Source: Deltaproteobacteria bacterium (GTDB lineage: Bacteria; Myxococcota_A; UBA9160; SZUA-336). From it: 44,140 nucleotides of DNA. Positions 16,113-34,329 of the stretch are shown piece by piece. Made by a program: the position numbers and the translations under genes. Positions within the stretch are counted from its first letter, which is position 1, and every line of letters begins with the position of its first letter. The stretch is taken from the NCBI GenBank assembly GCA_004356455.1, contig SMWZ01000118.1, positions 1 to 44,140 on the forward strand, in the 5' to 3' direction. Below the pieces are notes generated by a model. That model saw only the letters and a program-made list of their open reading frames with translations. It did no database searches and was not told the origin of the DNA.

Positions 16113-17129
16113 TCAGCCGATCGGGTAGGGGATCTCGCGCGCCACCCGGTCGCAGGCTTGCCGCACCTCATCCGAAAGCTTCAGGTCGGCCGCGGCGAGA
16201 GATTCGGTGAGCTGGTCCACCGAGGTCGCGCCGATCAGGGTCGAGCCAACGAACTCGCAGGTCAGCGTCCACGCGATCGCGAGGGTCACCGGCGGCAGGC
16301 CGGCCTCTGATGCCACCTGCATGAAGCGCGCGGTCGCCGCCAGGGTCTTCTCGCTCAGGAAGCGACGGGTTAGCGCCTGCGTGCGCGGGGTGTCGGTCTC
16401 GTAGAGGCTGAAGCGAGCGCCCGGGGGCCTCGCGCCGCCCTGGTACTTGCCGCTCAGCACCCCGGCCGCCAGCGGACTGTAGGGGAGCAGCGAGATGCGC
16501 TCGCTGCGGCAGACCTCGCGCAAGTCCTCTCCCGCACGCCGGTCGAGGAAGCTGAAACCGTTCTGAACGGTCTCGAAGCGCGGGTACCCGCCGACGTCCG
16601 CGGCCCAGAGGCTCTTGGTGAGACCGTACGCGCTCTCGTTGCTACAGCCGATCACGCGCACCTTACCGGCATCGACGACGCGCGCGAGCCCCTCGAGCGT
16701 CTCCTCGAAGGGCAGCCCCCGGTCCGACCAGTGCGTCTGGTAGAGGTCGATGTAGTCGGTCCCCAGCCGTCGCAGGCTGAGCTCGACCGCGCTCTCGATC
16801 GAGTGCCGGTCCAGCCCCACCTTGCCGCCACGCACGGGCGCCTGGAACCAGCCCCCGCCCGGGCCAGCGATCTTGGTGGCAATGAAGACGGAGTCGCGTT
16901 GCCGCCCGGAGAGCCACTTGCCCAGGATCTCCTCGCTGCGTCCCGCGTACTTGGGATCCGGCGGCACCGGATAGATCTCCGCCGTGTCGAAGAAATCGAT
17001 CCCCGCCTCGAGGGCCCGATCCATGATCGCCAGGCTCTGCGCCTCGTCGGCCATGCTGCCGAAGGTCATGGTTCCCAGGCCCAGCTCCGATACCACCAGG
17101 GCCGAACGCCCGAGTCGTCGACTCTTCAT
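16113..17129 (-). CDS. Aldo/keto reductase (Tas-like)
   Basis: LGLGTMTFG, DTAEIYP, SLRRLGTDYIDLYQTHW, YSPLAAGVLSGKY. Confidence 0.92.
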   Translation of the reverse strand: MKSRRLGRSALVVSELGLGTMTFGSMADEAQSLAIMDRALEAGIDFFDTAEIYPVPPDPKYAGRSEEILGKWLSGRQRDSVFIATKIAGPGGGWFQAPVRGGKVGLDRHSIESAVELSLRRLGTDYIDLYQTHWSDRGLPFEETLEGLARVVDAGKVRVIGCSNESAYGLTKSLWAADVGGYPRFETVQNGFSFLDRRAGEDLREVCRSERISLLPYSPLAAGVLSGKYQGGARPPGARFSLYETDTPRTQALTRRFLSEKTLAATARFMQVASEAGLPPVTLAIAWTLTCEFVGSTLIGATSVDQLTESLAAADLKLSDEVRQACDRVAREIPYPIG

Positions 17130-18031
17130 GCGTAGCTCCTAGCTTCCAGCTCTTTCAGCCCGGAGAAGCATGCGAGTGCCTGCGGGTTCGCGAGCGCGTC
17201 CCGGTTCTTGACCTCCTGTCCGTGGATCACCTGCCGCAGCGCAAGCTCCACCTTCTTTCCGCTGAGCGTGTACGGGATATCGGCCACGGCCAGAATCGAG
17301 GCCGGCACGTGTCGAGGCGTGGTGTTTTCGCGGATCCGCCGCTGGATGCGAGCCAGGAGATCGGCATCCAGCTCGAGGCCGGGCTTGAGCATCACGCAAA
17401 GAATCACCCGCACGTCGGCCACCACGTCCAGCGAGCCGTGGCTCTTTCCGTTGTAGTGATAGCCATCGTTGGGCTCGATCTGACCAAAGCGATCGAACAC
17501 ACCCGCCCTCCCGAAGTCAGGCGAGCACGAGGACCAGATGGCCCCCAGGCTGGTGGCGGCCAGCATCGCAACCACCGTCTCGGGCATGTTCGGCATGAGC
17601 CCCGCCACGCGCTCCCCGACACCGACGCCAGTCTCCCTCAGCGCGTGAGCCAGACGGGCCACTTGATGCTAGAGCTCGGCGTAGGTCATGCGCACCGGCG
17701 GCTGTCCTTCGCCTCGGAAGACGAGCGCCGTTCGGTCGTCGCGATGACGCAGCAGGTTCTCTGCGAAGTTGAGTGGCGCTCCCTCGAACCAGGTCGCACC
17801 CGGCATACGGGCGGGATCGTCTACGACCCGTACGTAGCCCCTGGAGTGGATGACCCCGCAGAAATCCCATACGGCGGCTCCGAGCTCCGCCGGGTTCTCG
17901 ACCGACCAGCGGTAGAGTGACTCGTAGTCCTCGAGTGCAACGCGGTGCCGATCACAGATCAAGCCGAGGAACCGGTAAAGCTGCGTCCCTCTCGCGCGCT
18001 CGGCGGACGGCTGCCACAGTAGCTCGGCCAC
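17126..18031 (-). pseudogene. Acetoacetate-CoA ligase pseudogene
   Basis: LWQPS, WFEGAPLNFAENLL, GAIWSSCSPDFG, PRHVP, PYTLSGKKVE are recognisable; in-frame TAG at 17669-17671; only about 300 codons of a usually ~650-aa enzyme, AMP-binding core absent. Confidence 0.85.
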
Positions 18032-27877: not shown

Positions 27878-29719
27878 CTAGGGCAAGGCGGGCGCGCAGA
27901 TCTGCGCGACGCCCGGACCCAGTGTTTCGCGCGCGCGCGTCAGCACCACGAGATCGAGGACATCGCACTCGGCCGCCCCCGATTTCCCCGCCACGTTACA
28001 CTTGTCGGGGAAGGGTAAAGCCAGCGCCGGCTCAGCCAGGAACAGGCGAACCGCGTCGACATCGCTTTGCAGCACCTTTCCATCGCCGTCCACATCGCCA
28101 CACTGGCACGGGTCTCCCACGCCGTCGGGCAGGGAGCTCTCGACGCCTCCCGAGTCGGGCTGGGGCGGCGTGCCGTTGGGGTGGACGGGGCAGTTGTCGA
28201 CGGCGTCCTCCGTTCCGTCCGCGTCGTAATCGCCCGTCGCCGGCGAGAGCGCTCCCAGCAGCCGCGCACGCGTAACAACCCCGTCCGGCGCGAGCGTGAG
28301 CCAGATGACGTCGCTGCCGTCCACACCCGCGACCGAGTTCGTGTGCACGAGCATGGGTCCGGGGCAGCACTCGTCTCCGAAGCCGCCCGAGGGTGGCGCG
28401 GCAACCTCGGTCTCGGCAGGACCGAAACGCGACGGTAGCAGCGGGTGCGGACGCTCCAGGTTGCGAGGATCGAAGGCGAGCACGCCCAGACCCCCATCGT
28501 TGAAGGAGGTGGCCACGATGAAGTCCCCCGAGGCCCCGAACCGAACCTCGACCACGAACCCCGCGGTCCCCGCTGCGCCCGATGGCGGCGGCAGTGCGAT
28601 CGGATTCTCGAACCCGCGGATCACGCGCTTGCGCAGACAGGGCACGCCACCCGCCTCGGCACCCATCACGTCATTACAGGACGGACGCTGCAGCGTCGGG
28701 TCGAGGTCGGGTCGCGGCAGGTCCTGAAGCCCGCGAATGTCCACCGCAAACAGGGCCCGCAGCGTTTGTGAGCCCACCACCGCCACCGAGCCCGTGGGAT
28801 CGATGGCGAGCGAGAGGCCGCCAGGGTTGACCTTGCCCAGCGGGAAGGACCCCACGATCGTCGCCGCAACCGGATCGATGACGTCGATGCTCCCGACCCC
28901 GGTGACCAGCGGCGGAACGGCCACGTCGAGAAGTCCGCTGTTCGTGACGGCCACCAGTCCTCCGGGGAGCGCGGTCAACGCGGTAGGATTGGGGTCCGAG
29001 GTGACGATGAAGGGCGGCGTGGCGGGCTCGATACTCGTCTGCGGTCCCGAGTCGTCGATATCAAACAGTAAAACGGTGCCGGGATTGAGAATCGGGTTGC
29101 TGCCCACGCGCTCGAAATTGGAGGTGCTCACGAGCAGACGACTCCCGACCCGAAGCACGTCGCTGGTCAAGCTCGTGTCGAAGCCCGTGATCGCAGTCCC
29201 AGTTCCGTCGGAATCGTAGGTCGTGAACGAGCCCGCGATACAGCGCTTGGTGGGCACGGAGCGTCTCGACTCGCCCTGGTAGATGACGGGCCAGTCCGCG
29301 CCCGTCGAGCTGTTGAACGGTACGACCAACTCGCAGTTGGAGGTCGTGACCCAGCCCCGCGTCAGGCTCCCGTCCATGGGATCGAGGTAGAGGTTTCCCA
29401 GCGTGCCAAAGTCGAAGCCCGTGGGATCGCCGCAGTTCGCGAGCGACTCGCTGCAGTTGAGGTTGGCCGGCAGGATGTAGACGGGATCGGCGAAGTCGAG
29501 CGCGACGCCGGGCGTGATCCCGATTCCGAAGACGCCCGGTACCACTGCCGCGCAGGACACGAAGGCCAGGTCCGGATCGAATGGATGCGCCTCGATTGCG
29601 GGCGGTGCGGGACAGAAGAGCGGAAGCGTATCGACGGCCTCCACGCCCGGCTGCAGCACTACGCCGAACGCCTCGAGCGGAATCAGCGCAAGCAGCAGCG
29701 GCAGGCCCGGCGCGCGCAT
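27878..29719 (-). CDS. Secreted beta-propeller-like protein with C-terminal thrombospondin type-3 repeats and dockerin-like domain
   Basis: Signal peptide; YncE-like blades (NPTAL..VAVTNSG, GSIDVIDP, LAIDPTG); DADGTEDAVDNCP...DGVGDPC; CGDVDGDG...DV; TGATG overlap with the receptor gene. Confidence 0.7.
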   Translation of the reverse strand: MRAPGLPLLLALIPLEAFGVVLQPGVEAVDTLPLFCPAPPAIEAHPFDPDLAFVSCAAVVPGVFGIGITPGVALDFADPVYILPANLNCSESLANCGDPTGFDFGTLGNLYLDPMDGSLTRGWVTTSNCELVVPFNSSTGADWPVIYQGESRRSVPTKRCIAGSFTTYDSDGTGTAITGFDTSLTSDVLRVGSRLLVSTSNFERVGSNPILNPGTVLLFDIDDSGPQTSIEPATPPFIVTSDPNPTALTALPGGLVAVTNSGLLDVAVPPLVTGVGSIDVIDPVAATIVGSFPLGKVNPGGLSLAIDPTGSVAVVGSQTLRALFAVDIRGLQDLPRPDLDPTLQRPSCNDVMGAEAGGVPCLRKRVIRGFENPIALPPPSGAAGTAGFVVEVRFGASGDFIVATSFNDGGLGVLAFDPRNLERPHPLLPSRFGPAETEVAAPPSGGFGDECCPGPMLVHTNSVAGVDGSDVIWLTLAPDGVVTRARLLGALSPATGDYDADGTEDAVDNCPVHPNGTPPQPDSGGVESSLPDGVGDPCQCGDVDGDGKVLQSDVDAVRLFLAEPALALPFPDKCNVAGKSGAAECDVLDLVVLTRARETLGPGVAQICAPALP

Positions 29720-31758
29720 CAGCGCGGAGCCAGGCGCAGGCGCATATACCACAGCGTGTCATCCGGCAGTGGCAAACCGAGCGAATCCACTCGCTGCTCG
29801 CCCGTCAGGTTGATCCACTCGAAGCTCAGCGTAAGGTTCTCCGGGACCCAGGCCAGGCCCGGGAGGTCGGACGGACGCAGGCTGATGCCGGCATCGAGTT
29901 GGGTCGCGCTATCTACCTTGAACCTCCCGCCTGCGTTCAGAAAGAGGTCGTCCTCGTGGGTGAACTCCACCCACAGCCGGTTGCCCGCAAGGCGCAGCGC
30001 GGCCCGACCGAAGAGCTGGTTGCGCGGCGAGTGCGGCAGCGGATTTCCCGTGCTCTTGATCTCGGTATCCAGATAGGTGTAGTTCCCGCCCAGCTCCAGG
30101 CGGTTCCAGAGCGTGAGTGAGCCGCGCAGCTCGTAGCCACGGGCCTCTGCCTGACCGGTGTTGCGTGGCACGAAGCTGTTGTTGAACTGGACCCACTCGA
30201 TGGCCTGCTCGATGTCCCTGTGAAAGAACACGCCCTCCAGGCGCAGCTGAGCGAGGGGCCCCCAGCCGTGGTTCGAGAACTCCAAGCCCACGTCGAAGTT
30301 CCAGCTCTGCTCGGGCTCGAGCTCCGGGTTGCCGCGAATGAAGCCGTAATCAGGATGAAAGAGCTCTGCGAAGGTCGGGCGGCGGTAGGCGCGTAGGTAG
30401 TTCGTCTTCAGCCGCAGACCAGGCGCAAGCCGCAGGATGGCGCCGATCTGGGGGAGCCACTCGCTACCGTCATCGACGTCGACCTCCTCGAATCCCTTGA
30501 ACTGCGCGGAGCGAACCTGGCCCGAGCTCGTATCGGCCAGCTCCAGACCGAGTGCGGGCAGCAGACGCAGGCGTCCACCGAAGAGCCGCACTTCCGACTG
30601 GGTGAAGAGGTTGCCCACCCAGCGCCGCTTGGAATCCACGTCATCGGTGCGCACGCGTTCGATTCGCACGCTCGAGACCGCACGATTCACCAGCCACGCA
30701 CGGCCGAGCCGTACAGGCTCCCCGATATAGTTCAGCTCGATACCGGTTTGCGTGTCGGTCGACTGCGAACGTGTACGATCGGGGAAGAGCCTGGCCGGAA
30801 AAAAGCCGCAGCGCTGGCCATCGTCGTGCAGCTCCGAGTACTCGTAGCGGTGGTAAACGGAGGCCTTGAACGCACCCGGGCCCAGCGCGCGATCGCTCCA
30901 GCCGAGGCTGAACACCGCGCGCCGGAACTGCTCCTCGCCATCGACGCAGCTCAGCTGCTCGTCCGTGACATCTCTGCGGGGGACGCCCAGCGTACCTCCA
31001 GGCTGGCCGTTGTCCTTACGCGAGAAGCGCAGAATCGCCGACGCCTCCGAGGTGGGGCCCGTGTCGAGGTAGGATGAGAGCAGGCCCGTCTCGCGTACAA
31101 AATCCGCGTTGAGACGTGTGTGACGCTCGTTCTGTGCCAGATCCTGGATCCCGCCGTCGCCCTCGATCAGATCGAAGTCGAAGTCATTCTGGCTGCGCAG
31201 TCGGCTGTAGGCGAGGGAGCTGCGCACGCGCTCGCCGTTGAGGGAGAGCAGCAGATCGGCCCCCAGGGTCTCGTAGCTCCCGGTCGTAGCTGACACATCC
31301 ACAGCACCCTCTTGAGCCGGCGCGCGGCTGGTGATCGAGATCACGCCGCCCATGGCATCGCTGCCGTAGCGTGCCGCGCCACCGCCGCGAATGACCTCGA
31401 TCCGCTCGATGGTACGCAGCGACAAGCTCGAGAGATCCACGCCGCCGCGCAGCGTCGAGTTGAGCCGCACGCCGTCCATGAGCACCAGCACCTGCTCCGA
31501 CTTCGCCCCGCGGATCGAGGCCGTGCTGTGCGCACCCAGCCCGCCGAAGCGCCGCACGCGCATGCCCGCCGCGTGATGCAGCACATCCTCGACGCTCTCG
31601 AAGCGATCGTCGTACTCCCGGGCCTCGATCACCGTGACGAAGGCCGAGGGAGCCTCAACCGCCTCCGGAAACTCCTGGGCGTGGACCGCGGCGGCCAGGG
31701 CCGCGAGGATTAGAAGCGCGAGTACAGGGGTGGCGCGCTGTGCCGGTGGGGAACGCAT
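29719..31758 (-). CDS. btuB: TonB-dependent receptor, BtuB-like cobalamin transporter
   Basis: Plug motifs (SIRGA..EQVLVLMDGV, IERIEVIRG..YGSDAMGGVISI), barrel motifs (RRPTFAEL, GNPELEPE); cobalamin riboswitch directly upstream. Confidence 0.85.
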   Translation of the reverse strand: MRSPPAQRATPVLALLILAALAAAVHAQEFPEAVEAPSAFVTVIEAREYDDRFESVEDVLHHAAGMRVRRFGGLGAHSTASIRGAKSEQVLVLMDGVRLNSTLRGGVDLSSLSLRTIERIEVIRGGGAARYGSDAMGGVISITSRAPAQEGAVDVSATTGSYETLGADLLLSLNGERVRSSLAYSRLRSQNDFDFDLIEGDGGIQDLAQNERHTRLNADFVRETGLLSSYLDTGPTSEASAILRFSRKDNGQPGGTLGVPRRDVTDEQLSCVDGEEQFRRAVFSLGWSDRALGPGAFKASVYHRYEYSELHDDGQRCGFFPARLFPDRTRSQSTDTQTGIELNYIGEPVRLGRAWLVNRAVSSVRIERVRTDDVDSKRRWVGNLFTQSEVRLFGGRLRLLPALGLELADTSSGQVRSAQFKGFEEVDVDDGSEWLPQIGAILRLAPGLRLKTNYLRAYRRPTFAELFHPDYGFIRGNPELEPEQSWNFDVGLEFSNHGWGPLAQLRLEGVFFHRDIEQAIEWVQFNNSFVPRNTGQAEARGYELRGSLTLWNRLELGGNYTYLDTEIKSTGNPLPHSPRNQLFGRAALRLAGNRLWVEFTHEDDLFLNAGGRFKVDSATQLDAGISLRPSDLPGLAWVPENLTLSFEWINLTGEQRVDSLGLPLPDDTLWYMRLRLAPR

Positions 31759-31798
31759 TTTCGACTCCCTCCTCGGAGAGCGGACTTCCGTCCTTCCA

Positions 31799-31957
31799 CC
31801 CCGGCAGGTCTCCTGGCTGAGGGGTCGAGCGCTTGCGGCCGAGCCTTCCCCGATCGGCGATCGAGTGGCGTGTTTCGGCGAAGCTTCCCCATCACAGTGG
31901 CGGGACCACGGCCGATTCTCACGGCCTTCCCTTTTGAGTCCGAAATGGACACCGGAG
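31799..31957 (-). promoter_or_regulatory. Cobalamin riboswitch upstream of btuB
   Basis: Minus strand: GGTG..AAAGGGAA-GGCCGTGAGAATCGGCC-GTGGTCCCGCCACTGTGA..GCCACT..GGGAAGG..AGCCAGGAGACCTGCC (B12 box); anti-SD CTCTCC next to RBS GGAGGGAG. Confidence 0.93.
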
Positions 31958-31989
31958 TCAGTGGATCGCTACCACCCGAGGTGCGGTGC

Positions 31990-32040
31990 TGTCAACTCCA
32001 GGCACCGAAGTTGACGGGGCGAAGCCGGCTGCGCTAGAAA
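31990..32040. promoter_or_regulatory. Back-to-back sigma70-type -35 elements for the two riboswitch leaders
   Basis: TTGACA on minus strand (31995-31990); TTGACG-N18-TAGAAA on plus strand (32011-32040); the minus-strand -10 is weak. Confidence 0.45.
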
Positions 32041-32055
32041 GGAGATCACATAGCC

Positions 32056-32257
32056 GTGGATGGTGTCCCTCGAGCGGACGCTCGAGGGCAGCTCCCGCCC
32101 GGAACCTTGACGGGGGGAGCTGCGGGAAGCCGGTGAGAATCCGGCGCGAGCCCGTCGCTGTGACCGGGGACGAGCGTCGAGTAATACCACTGGCCCGCTC
32201 AGGGCTGGGAAGGTTCGGCGCTCGCGGGATCCGGGAGCCAGAAGACCGGCCAGCCAC
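32056..32257 (+). promoter_or_regulatory. Cobalamin riboswitch upstream of the PEP-CTERM gene
   Basis: GGTG..CGGGAA-GCCGGTGAGAATCCGGC-GCGAGCCCGTCGCTGTGA..ACCACTG..GGGAAGG..GAGCCAGAAGACCGGCC; downstream hairpin TTCTC-CGAGGTC-GAGAA over the RBS region. Confidence 0.92.
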
Positions 32258-32293
32258 ATCGGATTTGCGTTTCTCCGAGGTCGAGAAGGCAGA

Positions 32294-33097
32294 ATGATGC
32301 ACGCCCCCAGAACCCTCTTCGCATTCCCCCTGATCCTCCAGCTGGCGCTCGCGGCCACCTCGTACGCGACCCCCTTTGCCACCCGCGTCGTGGACTTCAC
32401 CCCGGGCACGAACGGCAGCGCTGGCTTCGACGACCCCGGCGTGGCGCTCGGAATCCCGAGCCTGGACACCGGATTCGGGGACGTAACGCCCTTCAACGCG
32501 CCCTTCTCACCGGATCAGATCGTCTCCATCGGCGCGGGCGGCGAGCTCATCGTAAGTTTCACGGAGCCCGTCGAGGACAACCCACTTAATCCCTTCGGGA
32601 TCGATCTTCTCATCTACGGCAACGCCTTCTTCTTCGACCCGAGCTTCGCGCCCATCGCGAACGACATCTTCGCTGAGCCCGGACGGATCAGCGTGAGCCA
32701 GGACGGGGCTTCGTGGTTCGACATCACGAGCATCTTCGCCGACGGACTCTTCCCCACGCTGGCCTTCGTCGACGGCTCGGGCCCGTTCAGCAGCGACGGC
32801 ACGATCCTGTCGGACTTCACCCGGCCTGTGGATCCCTCCATCGATTGGATGGGCAAGGCCTTCGACGAGATCGTCCAGCTCTACGCGGGGGCTGGCGGCG
32901 GGGCCGGCGTCGATATCGCCGAGACGGGCCTACCGTGGATTCAGTTCGTGCGTATCTCGCAGGGCATCGACGACGCGTTCGCGACGGAGATCGATGCCTT
33001 CGCCGATGTGCGACCGGTGCCCGAGCCAACGGTGCTGCTGCTGCTCTGCGTCGGACTCGCGGGCCTGGGCCTGCTGCGCCGCGCCGCTCAGGCGTAA
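32294..33097 (+). CDS. PEP-CTERM (exosortase-sorted) cell-surface protein
   Basis: Signal peptide; C-terminal VPEP + hydrophobic helix + RR; body VSIGAGGELIVSF...DLLIYGNAF...EPGRISVSQDG. Confidence 0.9.
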   Translation: MMHAPRTLFAFPLILQLALAATSYATPFATRVVDFTPGTNGSAGFDDPGVALGIPSLDTGFGDVTPFNAPFSPDQIVSIGAGGELIVSFTEPVEDNPLNPFGIDLLIYGNAFFFDPSFAPIANDIFAEPGRISVSQDGASWFDITSIFADGLFPTLAFVDGSGPFSSDGTILSDFTRPVDPSIDWMGKAFDEIVQLYAGAGGGAGVDIAETGLPWIQFVRISQGIDDAFATEIDAFADVRPVPEPTVLLLLCVGLAGLGLLRRAAQA

Positions 33098-33099
33098 CT

Positions 33100-34329
33100 C
33101 TAGATCACCCCCGCCTCGCGCAGGCGGCGTCGTTCGGCCTCGTCGAAACCACACTGGGCCAGGATCTCGTCCGTGTGGGCGCCGAGCGCCGGCGCACCGC
33201 TGCGTACGGCCGTGGGCGTGCGCGAGAACTTCGTAGCCGGTCCGGTCACGGGTGCAATGCTACCGTCCTCCTGCGGGGTGGATTGGAGCATGTCGCGCTC
33301 GAGCACGTGGGGATCGCGCGCGGCCTCGGCATAGGTACGTACCGGCGCCACCGCCAGGCCCTCCGCCTTGAAGAGCGAGACCACCTCGTCGACCGGGCGT
33401 GTTTCGAGCCAGTTTGCAAGCAACTCGTTGACCTCGTCACGCCGCTCCACGCGTGCGCGGGGCGTCGCGTAGTCGGGGTGATCCGCCAGCTCGGGACGGC
33501 CGATTAGACGCGCCAGCCTCTTCCAGTGCGAGTCCAGCAGCACGCCCGCCATCACGTGGCCATCGCGGCAGCGGTATACGTTCGCGGGCGCGGCGACCAC
33601 GAACTGGCTTCCCATACGTCGGGGCGGAGCGCCCAGCGCGGCCAGGGTCAGGTACCCATTCGACTGGAAGAGCAGCGCGTCCAGCAGCGCGACATCAATG
33701 TGCTGCCCCTCTCCCGTTCGATCGCGATGGCGCAGCGCCGCCAGCGCCGCGACGGCGCCGTGCAGGCCCCCAAGGTCGTCCGCGAGGAAGGTCGGCGACT
33801 TGACCGGTACGCCATCGGCTTCACCGTTCAGCGAGATGAAGCCGCTCGCGGCCTGCGCGGCGGGGTCGTAGCCCGCCTGGTCGTGCTCGGGCCCGAACTG
33901 ACCGTAGCCGCTGATCGAAACGTAGACGATGTCGGGCTTTGCGGCGCGCAGGTCCGCATAGCCCAGGCCCCAGCGCGCCATCGTGCCCGGTCGGAAGTTC
34001 TCCACCACCACGTCCGCGCGAGCCGCGAGCCGCAGAAAAACCTCTGCTCCCTCTCGCCGCCGCAGGTCGAGCGTGAGACTCCGCTTGTTGCGGTTGACGG
34101 TCGTATGCATGCAGGAGAGCTGAGGCTGCGGACCGGGAAGGAAGGGCGGTAGACGACGCGCCACCTCGCCCTCTGGCAGCTCCGCCTTGATCACGTCCGC
34201 GCCGAGGTCGGCAAGCACGCATGCGCACATGGGTCCCGCCCAGGTGGTGGTGGCCTCGAGCACACGCAGCCCGGCGATGGGTCCGGGGAGATCGCGGCGT
34301 GCGTTGCGATAGAACTCGCTCTTCTCCAC
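33100..34329 (-). CDS. CaiB/BaiF family (class III) CoA-transferase
   Basis: AGPMCACVLADLGADVIK, NRNKRS, ENFRPG, ISGYGQFGP, GEGQHID, APALGAHT. Confidence 0.93.
   Translation of the reverse strand: MEKSEFYRNARRDLPGPIAGLRVLEATTTWAGPMCACVLADLGADVIKAELPEGEVARRLPPFLPGPQPQLSCMHTTVNRNKRSLTLDLRRREGAEVFLRLAARADVVVENFRPGTMARWGLGYADLRAAKPDIVYVSISGYGQFGPEHDQAGYDPAAQAASGFISLNGEADGVPVKSPTFLADDLGGLHGAVAALAALRHRDRTGEGQHIDVALLDALLFQSNGYLTLAALGAPPRRMGSQFVVAAPANVYRCRDGHVMAGVLLDSHWKRLARLIGRPELADHPDYATPRARVERRDEVNELLANWLETRPVDEVVSLFKAEGLAVAPVRTYAEAARDPHVLERDMLQSTPQEDGSIAPVTGPATKFSRTPTAVRSGAPALGAHTDEILAQCGFDEAERRRLREAGVI

Follow-up and report, generated by a model that had tools for sequence, protein, structure and literature searches.

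A cobalamin riboswitch-controlled PEP-CTERM protein with a predicted BtuH-like fold, a candidate surface corrinoid binder of Myxococcota

We analyzed a stretch of 44,140 nucleotides (nt), hereafter the window (contig SMWZ01000118.1, positions 1–44,140), from a myxococcote genome of 3.40 Mb that is 89.8% complete. The window holds a gene for a secreted PEP-CTERM protein that lies behind its own cobalamin riboswitch and whose predicted structure is closest to the vitamin B12-binding domain of Bacteroides BtuH. The product is probably a B12-repressed, exosortase-anchored surface protein that captures corrinoids in the manner of BtuH. This reading builds on the riboswitch, the open reading frame (ORF), the sorting signal, the exosortase, the predicted fold with its closest structures and the conserved synteny described below, from which we infer corrinoid binding, surface exposure and hand-over to a receptor.

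The PEP-CTERM gene and its riboswitch

The gene and the elements around it are the following, with riboswitches detected by the Rfam covariance model RF00174 (gathering score 31.5 bits):

32044..32268, plus strand: cobalamin riboswitch aptamer 5' of the PEP-CTERM gene (RF00174, 99.4 bits, E 8.4e-24, model positions 1–189 of 189)
32270..32288, plus strand: candidate hairpin sequestering the Shine–Dalgarno sequence (UUUCUC/GAGAAG pairing, 7-nt loop)
32294..33097, plus strand: gene for the secreted BtuH-like PEP-CTERM protein, 267 amino acids (aa), from the ORF list and homologue searches
32294..32368, plus strand: signal peptide, residues 1–25, likely cleaved after SYA (read from the sequence; a low-pLDDT helix at residues 10–20 in the model)
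32369..33016, plus strand: BtuH-like beta-sandwich domain, residues 26–241, the proposed corrinoid-binding module
33014..33082, plus strand: PEP-CTERM sorting signal, residues 241–263 (VPEP, hydrophobic helix, RR; PF07589, TIGR02595)
33100..34329, minus strand: CoA-transferase III, the 3' neighbor (PF02515, E 8.7e-124)

The match to the full aptamer lies on the same strand as the gene and 5' of it, with a gap of 25 nt between the 3' end of the aptamer and the ATG. A Shine–Dalgarno sequence, GAGAAGG (32283–32289), stands 4 nt 5' of the ATG and is paired with the UUUCUC that directly follows the aptamer, in both the minimum-free-energy and the centroid folds of 32030–32320. A promoter and terminator scan of 31700–33400 returned no promoter-like site, no terminator-like element between aptamer and ATG, and a single terminator-like site, at chance level, within the minus-strand aptamer described below. 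Because the Shine–Dalgarno sequence is paired in a hairpin after the aptamer and no terminator-like element precedes the start, the switch appears to act on translation rather than on transcription, with the hairpin as its putative expression platform. The CoA-transferase gene downstream is convergent, with the two stop codons 2 nt apart, so that the PEP-CTERM gene is the sole gene behind the plus-strand switch. An initial annotation of this DNA, made from the sequence alone, had proposed both a B12 riboswitch of the gene's own and a monocistronic arrangement, and the full-length aptamer and the convergent neighbor bear it out.

The N-terminus, MMHAPRTLFAFPLILQLALAATSYA/TP, reads as a Sec-type (SPI-type) signal peptide. 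Residues 25–243 (219 aa) are acidic and rich in aromatic residues (D+E 31, K+R 6, F+W+Y 28, isoelectric point 4.05) and contain neither Cys nor His. No Cys occurs anywhere in residues 1–243; the protein has no lipobox Cys and is not an SPII lipoprotein, carrying a PEP-CTERM anchor instead. The sorting signal scores 23.9 bits with PF07589 (cut-off 20.7) and 20.9 bits with TIGR02595 (cut-off 16). Scans with Pfam and NCBIfam found no Pfam domain over the protein body and no enzyme-family match, and the named PEP-CTERM families, including PepA-type models, match no more than the last ~35 residues. The genome holds a single copy of the gene. Contig C11 encodes an exosortase (PF09721, 237.7 bits), and contig C68 has a second match (40.2 bits); this settles a check that the initial annotation had proposed. 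The reading frame, signal peptide, acidic aromatic-rich domain and VPEP-TM-RR tail are exactly as annotated there, and the motif string that had been singled out, S(I/L)GxGG..F...N..G.D...GNAF...EPG..VSQDG..W, is literally present as SIGAGGELIVSF...NPFGIDLLIYGNAFF...EPGRISVSQDGASW.

Predicted fold and relation to BtuH

An AlphaFold2 model of the protein, built with a 36-sequence alignment, reached a pLDDT of 92.3 and a pTM of 0.85. A Foldseek search against the PDB placed 8BLW chain B first (E 1.9e-6) and 7BIZ second (E 1.4e-5), with all other matches at E > 1e-3. VIA-align, run on the Foldseek candidates and independently on 48,161 PDB representatives, put the same two structures on top in both runs. 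The references from Bacteroides thetaiotaomicron are BtuH1 (BT1488, domain only), BtuH2 (BT1956, 7BIZ) and BtuG1/BtuGH (BT1490, 8BLW chain B). In BtuH2, residues 317–593 form the globular C-terminal domain to which cyanocobalamin is bound in the crystal structure (PMC8941943), and it is the fold of this region (residues ~317–593 of 7BIZ) that the window protein's model shares. In 8BLW, a structure of BtuG1 with BtuB1, the matching part of chain B corresponds to the BtuH-type domain of BtuG1/BtuGH (PMC8941943; PMC13616437). Binding of the corrin ring and the nucleotide loop is the one function that the available text of PMC8941943 describes for the domain.

The initial annotation had suggested a resemblance to cell-surface proteins of Bacteroides btu loci and had called it BtuJ-like. 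The first part agrees with the fold searches, in which BtuH domains come out on top; the second does not, the closest solved structures being 7BIZ and 8BLW. BtuJ1 and BtuJ2 belong to DUF4465 (PF14717), a jellyroll family whose conserved HI loop (NTPAY/GTPAYF) carries a B12-binding tyrosine (PMC13398666). Identity with this family was rejected: PF14717 gives no match at E ≤ 1, and no TPAY string occurs in the 267 aa. PF14717 is absent also among 20 divergent family members at E ≤ 0.1. The augmented-jellyroll fold of BtuJ (9FCT/9I2L) has no entry among the matches listed in the three fold searches, an absence that leaves the fold possible. Since PF14717 and TPAY are missing from the protein, it is better described as BtuH-like than as BtuJ-like, and the suggested resemblance was right in spirit. 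The proposal of an extracellular or surface B12-binding protein under its own riboswitch gains from the predicted fold and from the conserved context, with the named relative replaced.

In BtuH2, the contacts to the corrin ring and nucleotide loop are made by Tyr510, Trp511, Trp577, His476, Asn399 and Gln333, and a Na/Ca site is formed by Glu406, Glu584, Asp522, Asn399 and Ser582 (PMC8941943). In the window protein, N110-x-F112 falls near Asn399-x-Phe401 and E232 near Glu584, positions obtained by arithmetic from the ends of the aligned ranges and not from an alignment. Residues invariant in the family include N110, F112, Y197, D207, W214, E232 and D234, as well as a DP..ALG.P loop. The BtuH authors noted a modest similarity of the domain to a CBM32 (AlyQ) (PMC8941943), and the same background appears in the fold searches with the window protein.

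Several observations weigh against a BtuH-like function. Family profile A1, profile A3 of 20 divergent members, and profile A4 of a sister family in other Myxococcota together with a planctomycete paralogue find neither 7BIZ nor 8BLW at E ≤ 10 in an hmmsearch of all PDB chain sequences. A phmmer search of PDB sequences with the planctomycete paralogue alone finds no BtuH match either; these attempts at a bridge returned chance matches only (a GTPase, a fucose synthetase and ribosomal proteins, E 0.25–1.6). A profile search of 1.84 billion proteins yielded, among the matches listed (down to E 1e-46), only close family members and no bridge to BtuH. The BtuH authors defined homologues by BLASTX at E ≤ 0.03 against BT1488, BT1490 and BT1956 (PMC8941943), and with the hmmsearch profiles and PDB sequences no similarity to this family is seen. 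As the PDB profile searches give no sequence-level link, the homology to BtuH rests on the predicted model. The lead of the BtuH structures over generic CBM32 and F-lectin sandwiches is only about 3 Z units, the fold comparison stands at the level of ranges, with equivalences of the B12-contacting residues unmapped in the predicted model, and the domain has no His, so that His476 of BtuH2 lacks an identical counterpart. The protein is not a lipoprotein, unlike every characterized BtuH. Seven of the 80 related loci described below lack a riboswitch even at E ≤ 1, one of which (L077) has only 487 nt upstream. B12 riboswitches also repress B12-independent isozymes, so riboswitch control alone is no proof of binding.

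Related loci and competing explanations

On the minus strand, the gene faces an operon led by a second riboswitch:

31786..31971, minus strand: second, divergent cobalamin riboswitch 5' of the receptor operon (RF00174, 116.6 bits, E 1e-28, full model)
29719..31758, minus strand: BtuB-like TonB-dependent receptor, 679 aa (plug and barrel Pfam domains)
27878..29752, minus strand: secreted seven-bladed beta-propeller with a Cys-rich thrombospondin-3/dockerin-like C-terminus, 613–624 aa (model pLDDT 88.9)

The two divergent aptamers lie 72 nt apart and are the sole RF00174 matches in the whole genome. The best NCBIfam match of the receptor is TIGR01779 (TonB-B12) at 153 bits, below the equivalog cut-off of 599.7, and its best solved relatives by sequence are those of E. 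coli BtuB (E 1.5e-22); it is presumably the outer-membrane importer for the captured corrinoid. The propeller frame overlaps the end of the receptor gene, which places it in the same riboswitch-led operon. We noted 88 propeller homologues, few of which carry a source name, nearly all of these Myxococcota, and one of which is named 'YncE family'. Fold searches with the propeller returned only tied generic propellers, and it may be a functional analogue of BtuG. A complex prediction of propeller residues 17–490 with residues 25–243 of the BtuH-like domain scored 0.00 in both runs, which were made without controls, and speaks neither way.

The genome encodes four proteins with a B12-binding domain (PF02310), in frames of 651–1256 aa, and one FecCD-type permease, while CbiC, CobD/CbiB and CobS give no match at 89.8% completeness. 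The four PF02310 proteins and the missing enzymes suggest, at the level of gene content, a host that uses B12 and can neither synthesize nor complete it. As both cobalamin riboswitches of the genome are at this locus and the single FecCD-type permease (contig C162) has none, B12 regulation appears confined to the outer-membrane and surface steps. Elsewhere in the window, a 178-aa ORF (17126–17662, minus strand) matches an AMP-binding enzyme model of 384 positions at positions 32–85 only, and could represent an acyl-CoA synthetase gene that is truncated or mis-started.

A working model would run as follows. At low intracellular cobalamin, the riboswitch would free the ribosome-binding site and the protein would be made. 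Export would follow the Sec route, after which the exosortase/PEP-CTERM pathway would process the protein and anchor it. The protein would display at the surface a single beta-sandwich of ~215 residues, a remote structural homologue of the BtuH B12-binding domain. Cobamides would be bound outside the cell and then passed to the BtuB-like receptor, which the divergent second riboswitch would turn on in parallel with its propeller partner. Plentiful B12 would turn the system off through both switches.

To place the gene in a wider context, we scanned with Rfam 80 related loci, which are all that were returned from one-genome-per-species contigs. RF00174 is found above the gathering score, on the same strand and upstream of the homologue in 72 of the 80 (17/17, 17/20, 17/20, 17/19 and 4/4). 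Rescanning the other eight at E ≤ 1 gave one sub-threshold aptamer (L040, 29.2 bits). The pairing thus holds across phyla and, as such riboswitches number one or a few per genome, is beyond chance. In the nine Myxococcota loci (L001, L004, L006–L009 and L012–L014), a divergent second riboswitch is always present, as are a receptor homologue (43–57% identity) and a propeller homologue (49–66%) on the other strand. Plus-strand ORFs of 624 aa 3' of the homologue in L006 and L014 were considered as propellers because of their length and rejected as antisense shadows, having no similarity to the propeller. The other 71 loci have no receptor match at E ≤ 1e-5 within about 4 kb; 64 ORFs examined downstream in them include 16 PQQ-type propellers, these in Planctomycetota, 13 prepilin-type/DUF1559 proteins and five methyltransferases.

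Of the 72 loci with a riboswitch, 61 have the aptamer immediately 5' of the gene; in the other 11, a gap of 745–2170 nt holds DUF1559/prepilin-like proteins and further PEP-CTERM proteins. This arrangement bears on the possibility that the protein belongs to B12 uptake without binding the vitamin, either as a structural or docking partner of the receptor and propeller or as a binder of other cargo, such as cobalt, cobinamide-type precursors or lower-ligand bases. Co-regulation with receptor and propeller would suit such a role, the lack of an identical counterpart to His476 is compatible with it, and the many invariant Asp, Glu and Asn residues of the family alignment could form just a structural Ca site, as in CBM32 folds. 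Nevertheless, the closest fold is that of a domain for which corrin and nucleotide-loop binding is the one described function, and since 61 of 72 loci lead with this gene, most of them planctomycete loci with no receptor homologue within 4 kb, the protein is not merely a receptor accessory. We consider such a role unlikely.

Another explanation is a lectin- or adhesin-type PEP-CTERM protein, that is, a CBM32-like sugar binder of the envelope or exopolysaccharide matrix that binds no corrinoid and for which B12 would be a mere regulatory cue, for example a signal of neighboring producers that switches surface properties. Exopolysaccharide and floc formation are the processes with which PEP-CTERM proteins are classically associated, although the PepA-type match here runs through the sorting signal only. 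Six of 20 divergent members also show weak similarity, over core strands, to the lipoprotein family LIC_13355 (best E 6.3e-6); this family has reportedly been studied as a binder of host components in Leptospira. On the other hand, BtuH-domain structures come first in three fold searches, with identities of 24–27% against 5–18% for lectins, the riboswitch accompanies the gene in 72 of 80 loci, and in every myxococcote locus the gene stands opposite a BtuB-like receptor led by a riboswitch. Nor does any polysaccharide synthesis or export gene lie alongside among the neighbors in the window. On balance, a sugar-binding role seems improbable. A B12-independent substitute function, repressed by B12 like metE and nrdAB-type genes, is very improbable: cobalamin riboswitches do control such isozymes, but the protein is exported and sorted to the surface, matches no enzyme family and has a lectin/BtuH-type binding fold.

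A word-indexed search found 672 homologues of the window protein at E ≤ 1e-3. The profile search of 1.84 billion proteins found 2204 cluster representatives (50% identity) at E ≤ 1e-3, 1012 at E ≤ 1e-10 and 431 at E ≤ 1e-30. Where a source is named, it is a metagenome-assembled genome from Myxococcota or Planctomycetota (Phycisphaerae among them) or, in a few cases, one labelled Omnitrophota or Verrucomicrobiota; an ESM Atlas search returned unnamed clusters only. Among 301 genomes sampled from the window's phylum, a match at E ≤ 1e-10 is present in 15, and strong matches (E ≤ 1e-78) occur solely within the family to which the window belongs, where 8 of 11 genomes have one, its own included. 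By a simple pattern, a PEP-CTERM-like tail is present in 102 of 120 close homologues and in 85 of 147 more distant representatives; some of the remaining members have dockerin-like ends or are fusions.

There are four long relatives. In three of them (P0122–P0124, 782–825 aa), the domain is followed by a PQQ-like propeller. A dockerin match occurs in P0123, where it is clear and C-terminal to the propeller, and in P0125, which has no propeller match at E ≤ 0.1. The frames of P0122–P0124 keep a PEP-like tail and a basic cluster between the BtuH-like part and the PQQ-type propeller; they are either true fusions with an internal membrane helix or frames in which the stop codon is missing in several lineages. 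Long reading frames are seen also in L011 (to 5569) and L021 (to 6340).

The sister family in other Myxococcota (L084–L090) is clearly related to the window protein (hhalign 99.8%, E 1.2e-28). A cobalamin riboswitch lies within about 1 kb in two of its seven narrowly cut loci (L090 and L084), so the B12 link may extend to a wider superfamily. Some members have an N-terminal immunoglobulin-like extension and conserved Cys pairs.

Planctomycete loci show arrangements of their own. A Pirellulales-type order consists of the riboswitch, a DUF1559/prepilin-type (H-X9-DG) protein, a second PEP-CTERM protein and the BtuH-like gene, often with a methyltransferase next (L015:2276-3993, L020:2156-3864, L039:2210-3950, L051:2332-4004, L070:503-2337 and L075:1261-3079). 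The second PEP-CTERM protein has a conserved WGYRWDG motif and a dockerin-like stretch, and matches no Pfam family. Riboswitch-led operons in L019 (1798-2718 and 2782-3891) and L059 (2747-3871) carry a PEP-CTERM paralogue of the sister family (GxDFxVFE..F core), together with a 370-aa PEP-CTERM protein without a family match. In many planctomycete loci, a same-strand tRNA gene (68.2–68.7 bits) lies about 3 kb upstream of the homologue, at ~480-980 in L025, L026, L030, L043, L045, L058, L062 and L076; this shared gene indicates conserved synteny around the cassette.

Few microbes make B12 and most need it, and its capture from the environment shapes communities. Surface binders of the BtuG, BtuH and BtuJ type have so far been worked out in gut Bacteroides, and the protein described here is probably, going by its predicted fold, a B12 scavenger of a type so far unreported from outside that genus. 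More tentatively, exosortase-sorted BtuH-like proteins might form the core of a large, undescribed, phylum-spanning B12-capture system. In Myxococcota, the protein, the BtuB-like receptor and the propeller would make up a functional analogue of the Bacteroides BtuB–BtuG–BtuH relay built from non-lipoprotein parts. In Planctomycetota, the binder would share its riboswitch operons with pseudopilin-like proteins (DUF1559), additional PEP-CTERM proteins and propellers of the PQQ type, and the lack of a TonB-dependent receptor nearby would imply a different route of B12 entry. Were this so, a family of PEP-CTERM proteins would for the first time have a physiological cargo function, and DUF1559 would gain its first ligand.

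A 2026 review describes BtuH homologues, in its available text, as predominantly from Bacteroidota plus three Firmicutes (PMC13616437). If the reading proposed here is true, the BtuH fold is far more widespread, reaching Myxococcota, Planctomycetota and others in the 2204 clusters given above, and has been re-mounted on a different surface anchor, the PEP-CTERM/exosortase system. It would also give one PEP-CTERM family a testable function, where most PEP-CTERM proteins have none, and offer biochemistry a small (~215 aa), cysteine-free candidate B12-binding module. We found no paper on riboswitch-led BtuH-like PEP-CTERM proteins in the literature searched, and no relevant paper joining PEP-CTERM or exosortase with a cobalamin/B12 riboswitch; one study reports PEP-CTERM genes behind cyclic di-GMP riboswitches. 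Among the papers listed, the microbiological ones on BtuH all concern Bacteroides.

Comparison with known systems

The LIC_13355 lipoprotein family of Leptospira (NF033170) shows a weak profile match to residues 78–148 of the window protein (E 0.011). Every match falls well short of the 120-bit cut-off of the family, which is one of lipoproteins without a known B12 link; as far as our search shows, a corrinoid-related role has not been considered for it. Proteins of the CBM32, F5/8 type C and F-type lectin folds share only the low identities given above with the window protein, which has no match to Pfam F5_F8_type_C (PF00754). The genes around it point to vitamin uptake and not to glycan degradation.

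PEP-CTERM cargo such as the flocculation protein PepA (NF033554) has the same VPEP motif, transmembrane helix and basic tail, with an exosortase in the genome. None of the named cargo families has a vitamin-related role or a riboswitch.

Like the window protein, BtuJ/DUF4465 proteins are placed in riboswitch-regulated, receptor-linked loci; they scavenge B12 either at the cell surface or as secreted proteins, and are widespread beyond Bacteroidota (PMC13398666). They differ in their augmented jellyroll, the conserved NTPAY HI loop and a helix tyrosine (PMC13398666).

BtuH is the closest counterpart. Both proteins are directed to the surface and encoded behind cobalamin riboswitches beside a btuB-type receptor. 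BtuH domains are found singly (BtuH1) as well as fused to, or next to, a beta-propeller (BtuGH, BT1490; PMC13616437), and the same pattern is found in the window protein's family, where the fused P0122–P0124 echo the BtuH–BtuG fusion BT1490 (PMC13616437). The domain of the window protein is ~60 residues shorter (aligned span 217 against 277) and has a Sec signal and a PEP-CTERM/exosortase anchor where BtuH has a lipoprotein signal. It also lacks PKD spacer domains, histidine and HMMER-detectable sequence similarity. On the strength of its model, we would file the protein as a remote structural homologue of BtuH on a new anchor rather than as a member of the BtuH family by sequence. The hosts differ as well: the published BtuH homologues, as given in the available text of the two sources, come from gut Bacteroidota and three Firmicutes (PMC8941943; PMC13616437), whereas those described here come from environmental Myxococcota and Planctomycetota.

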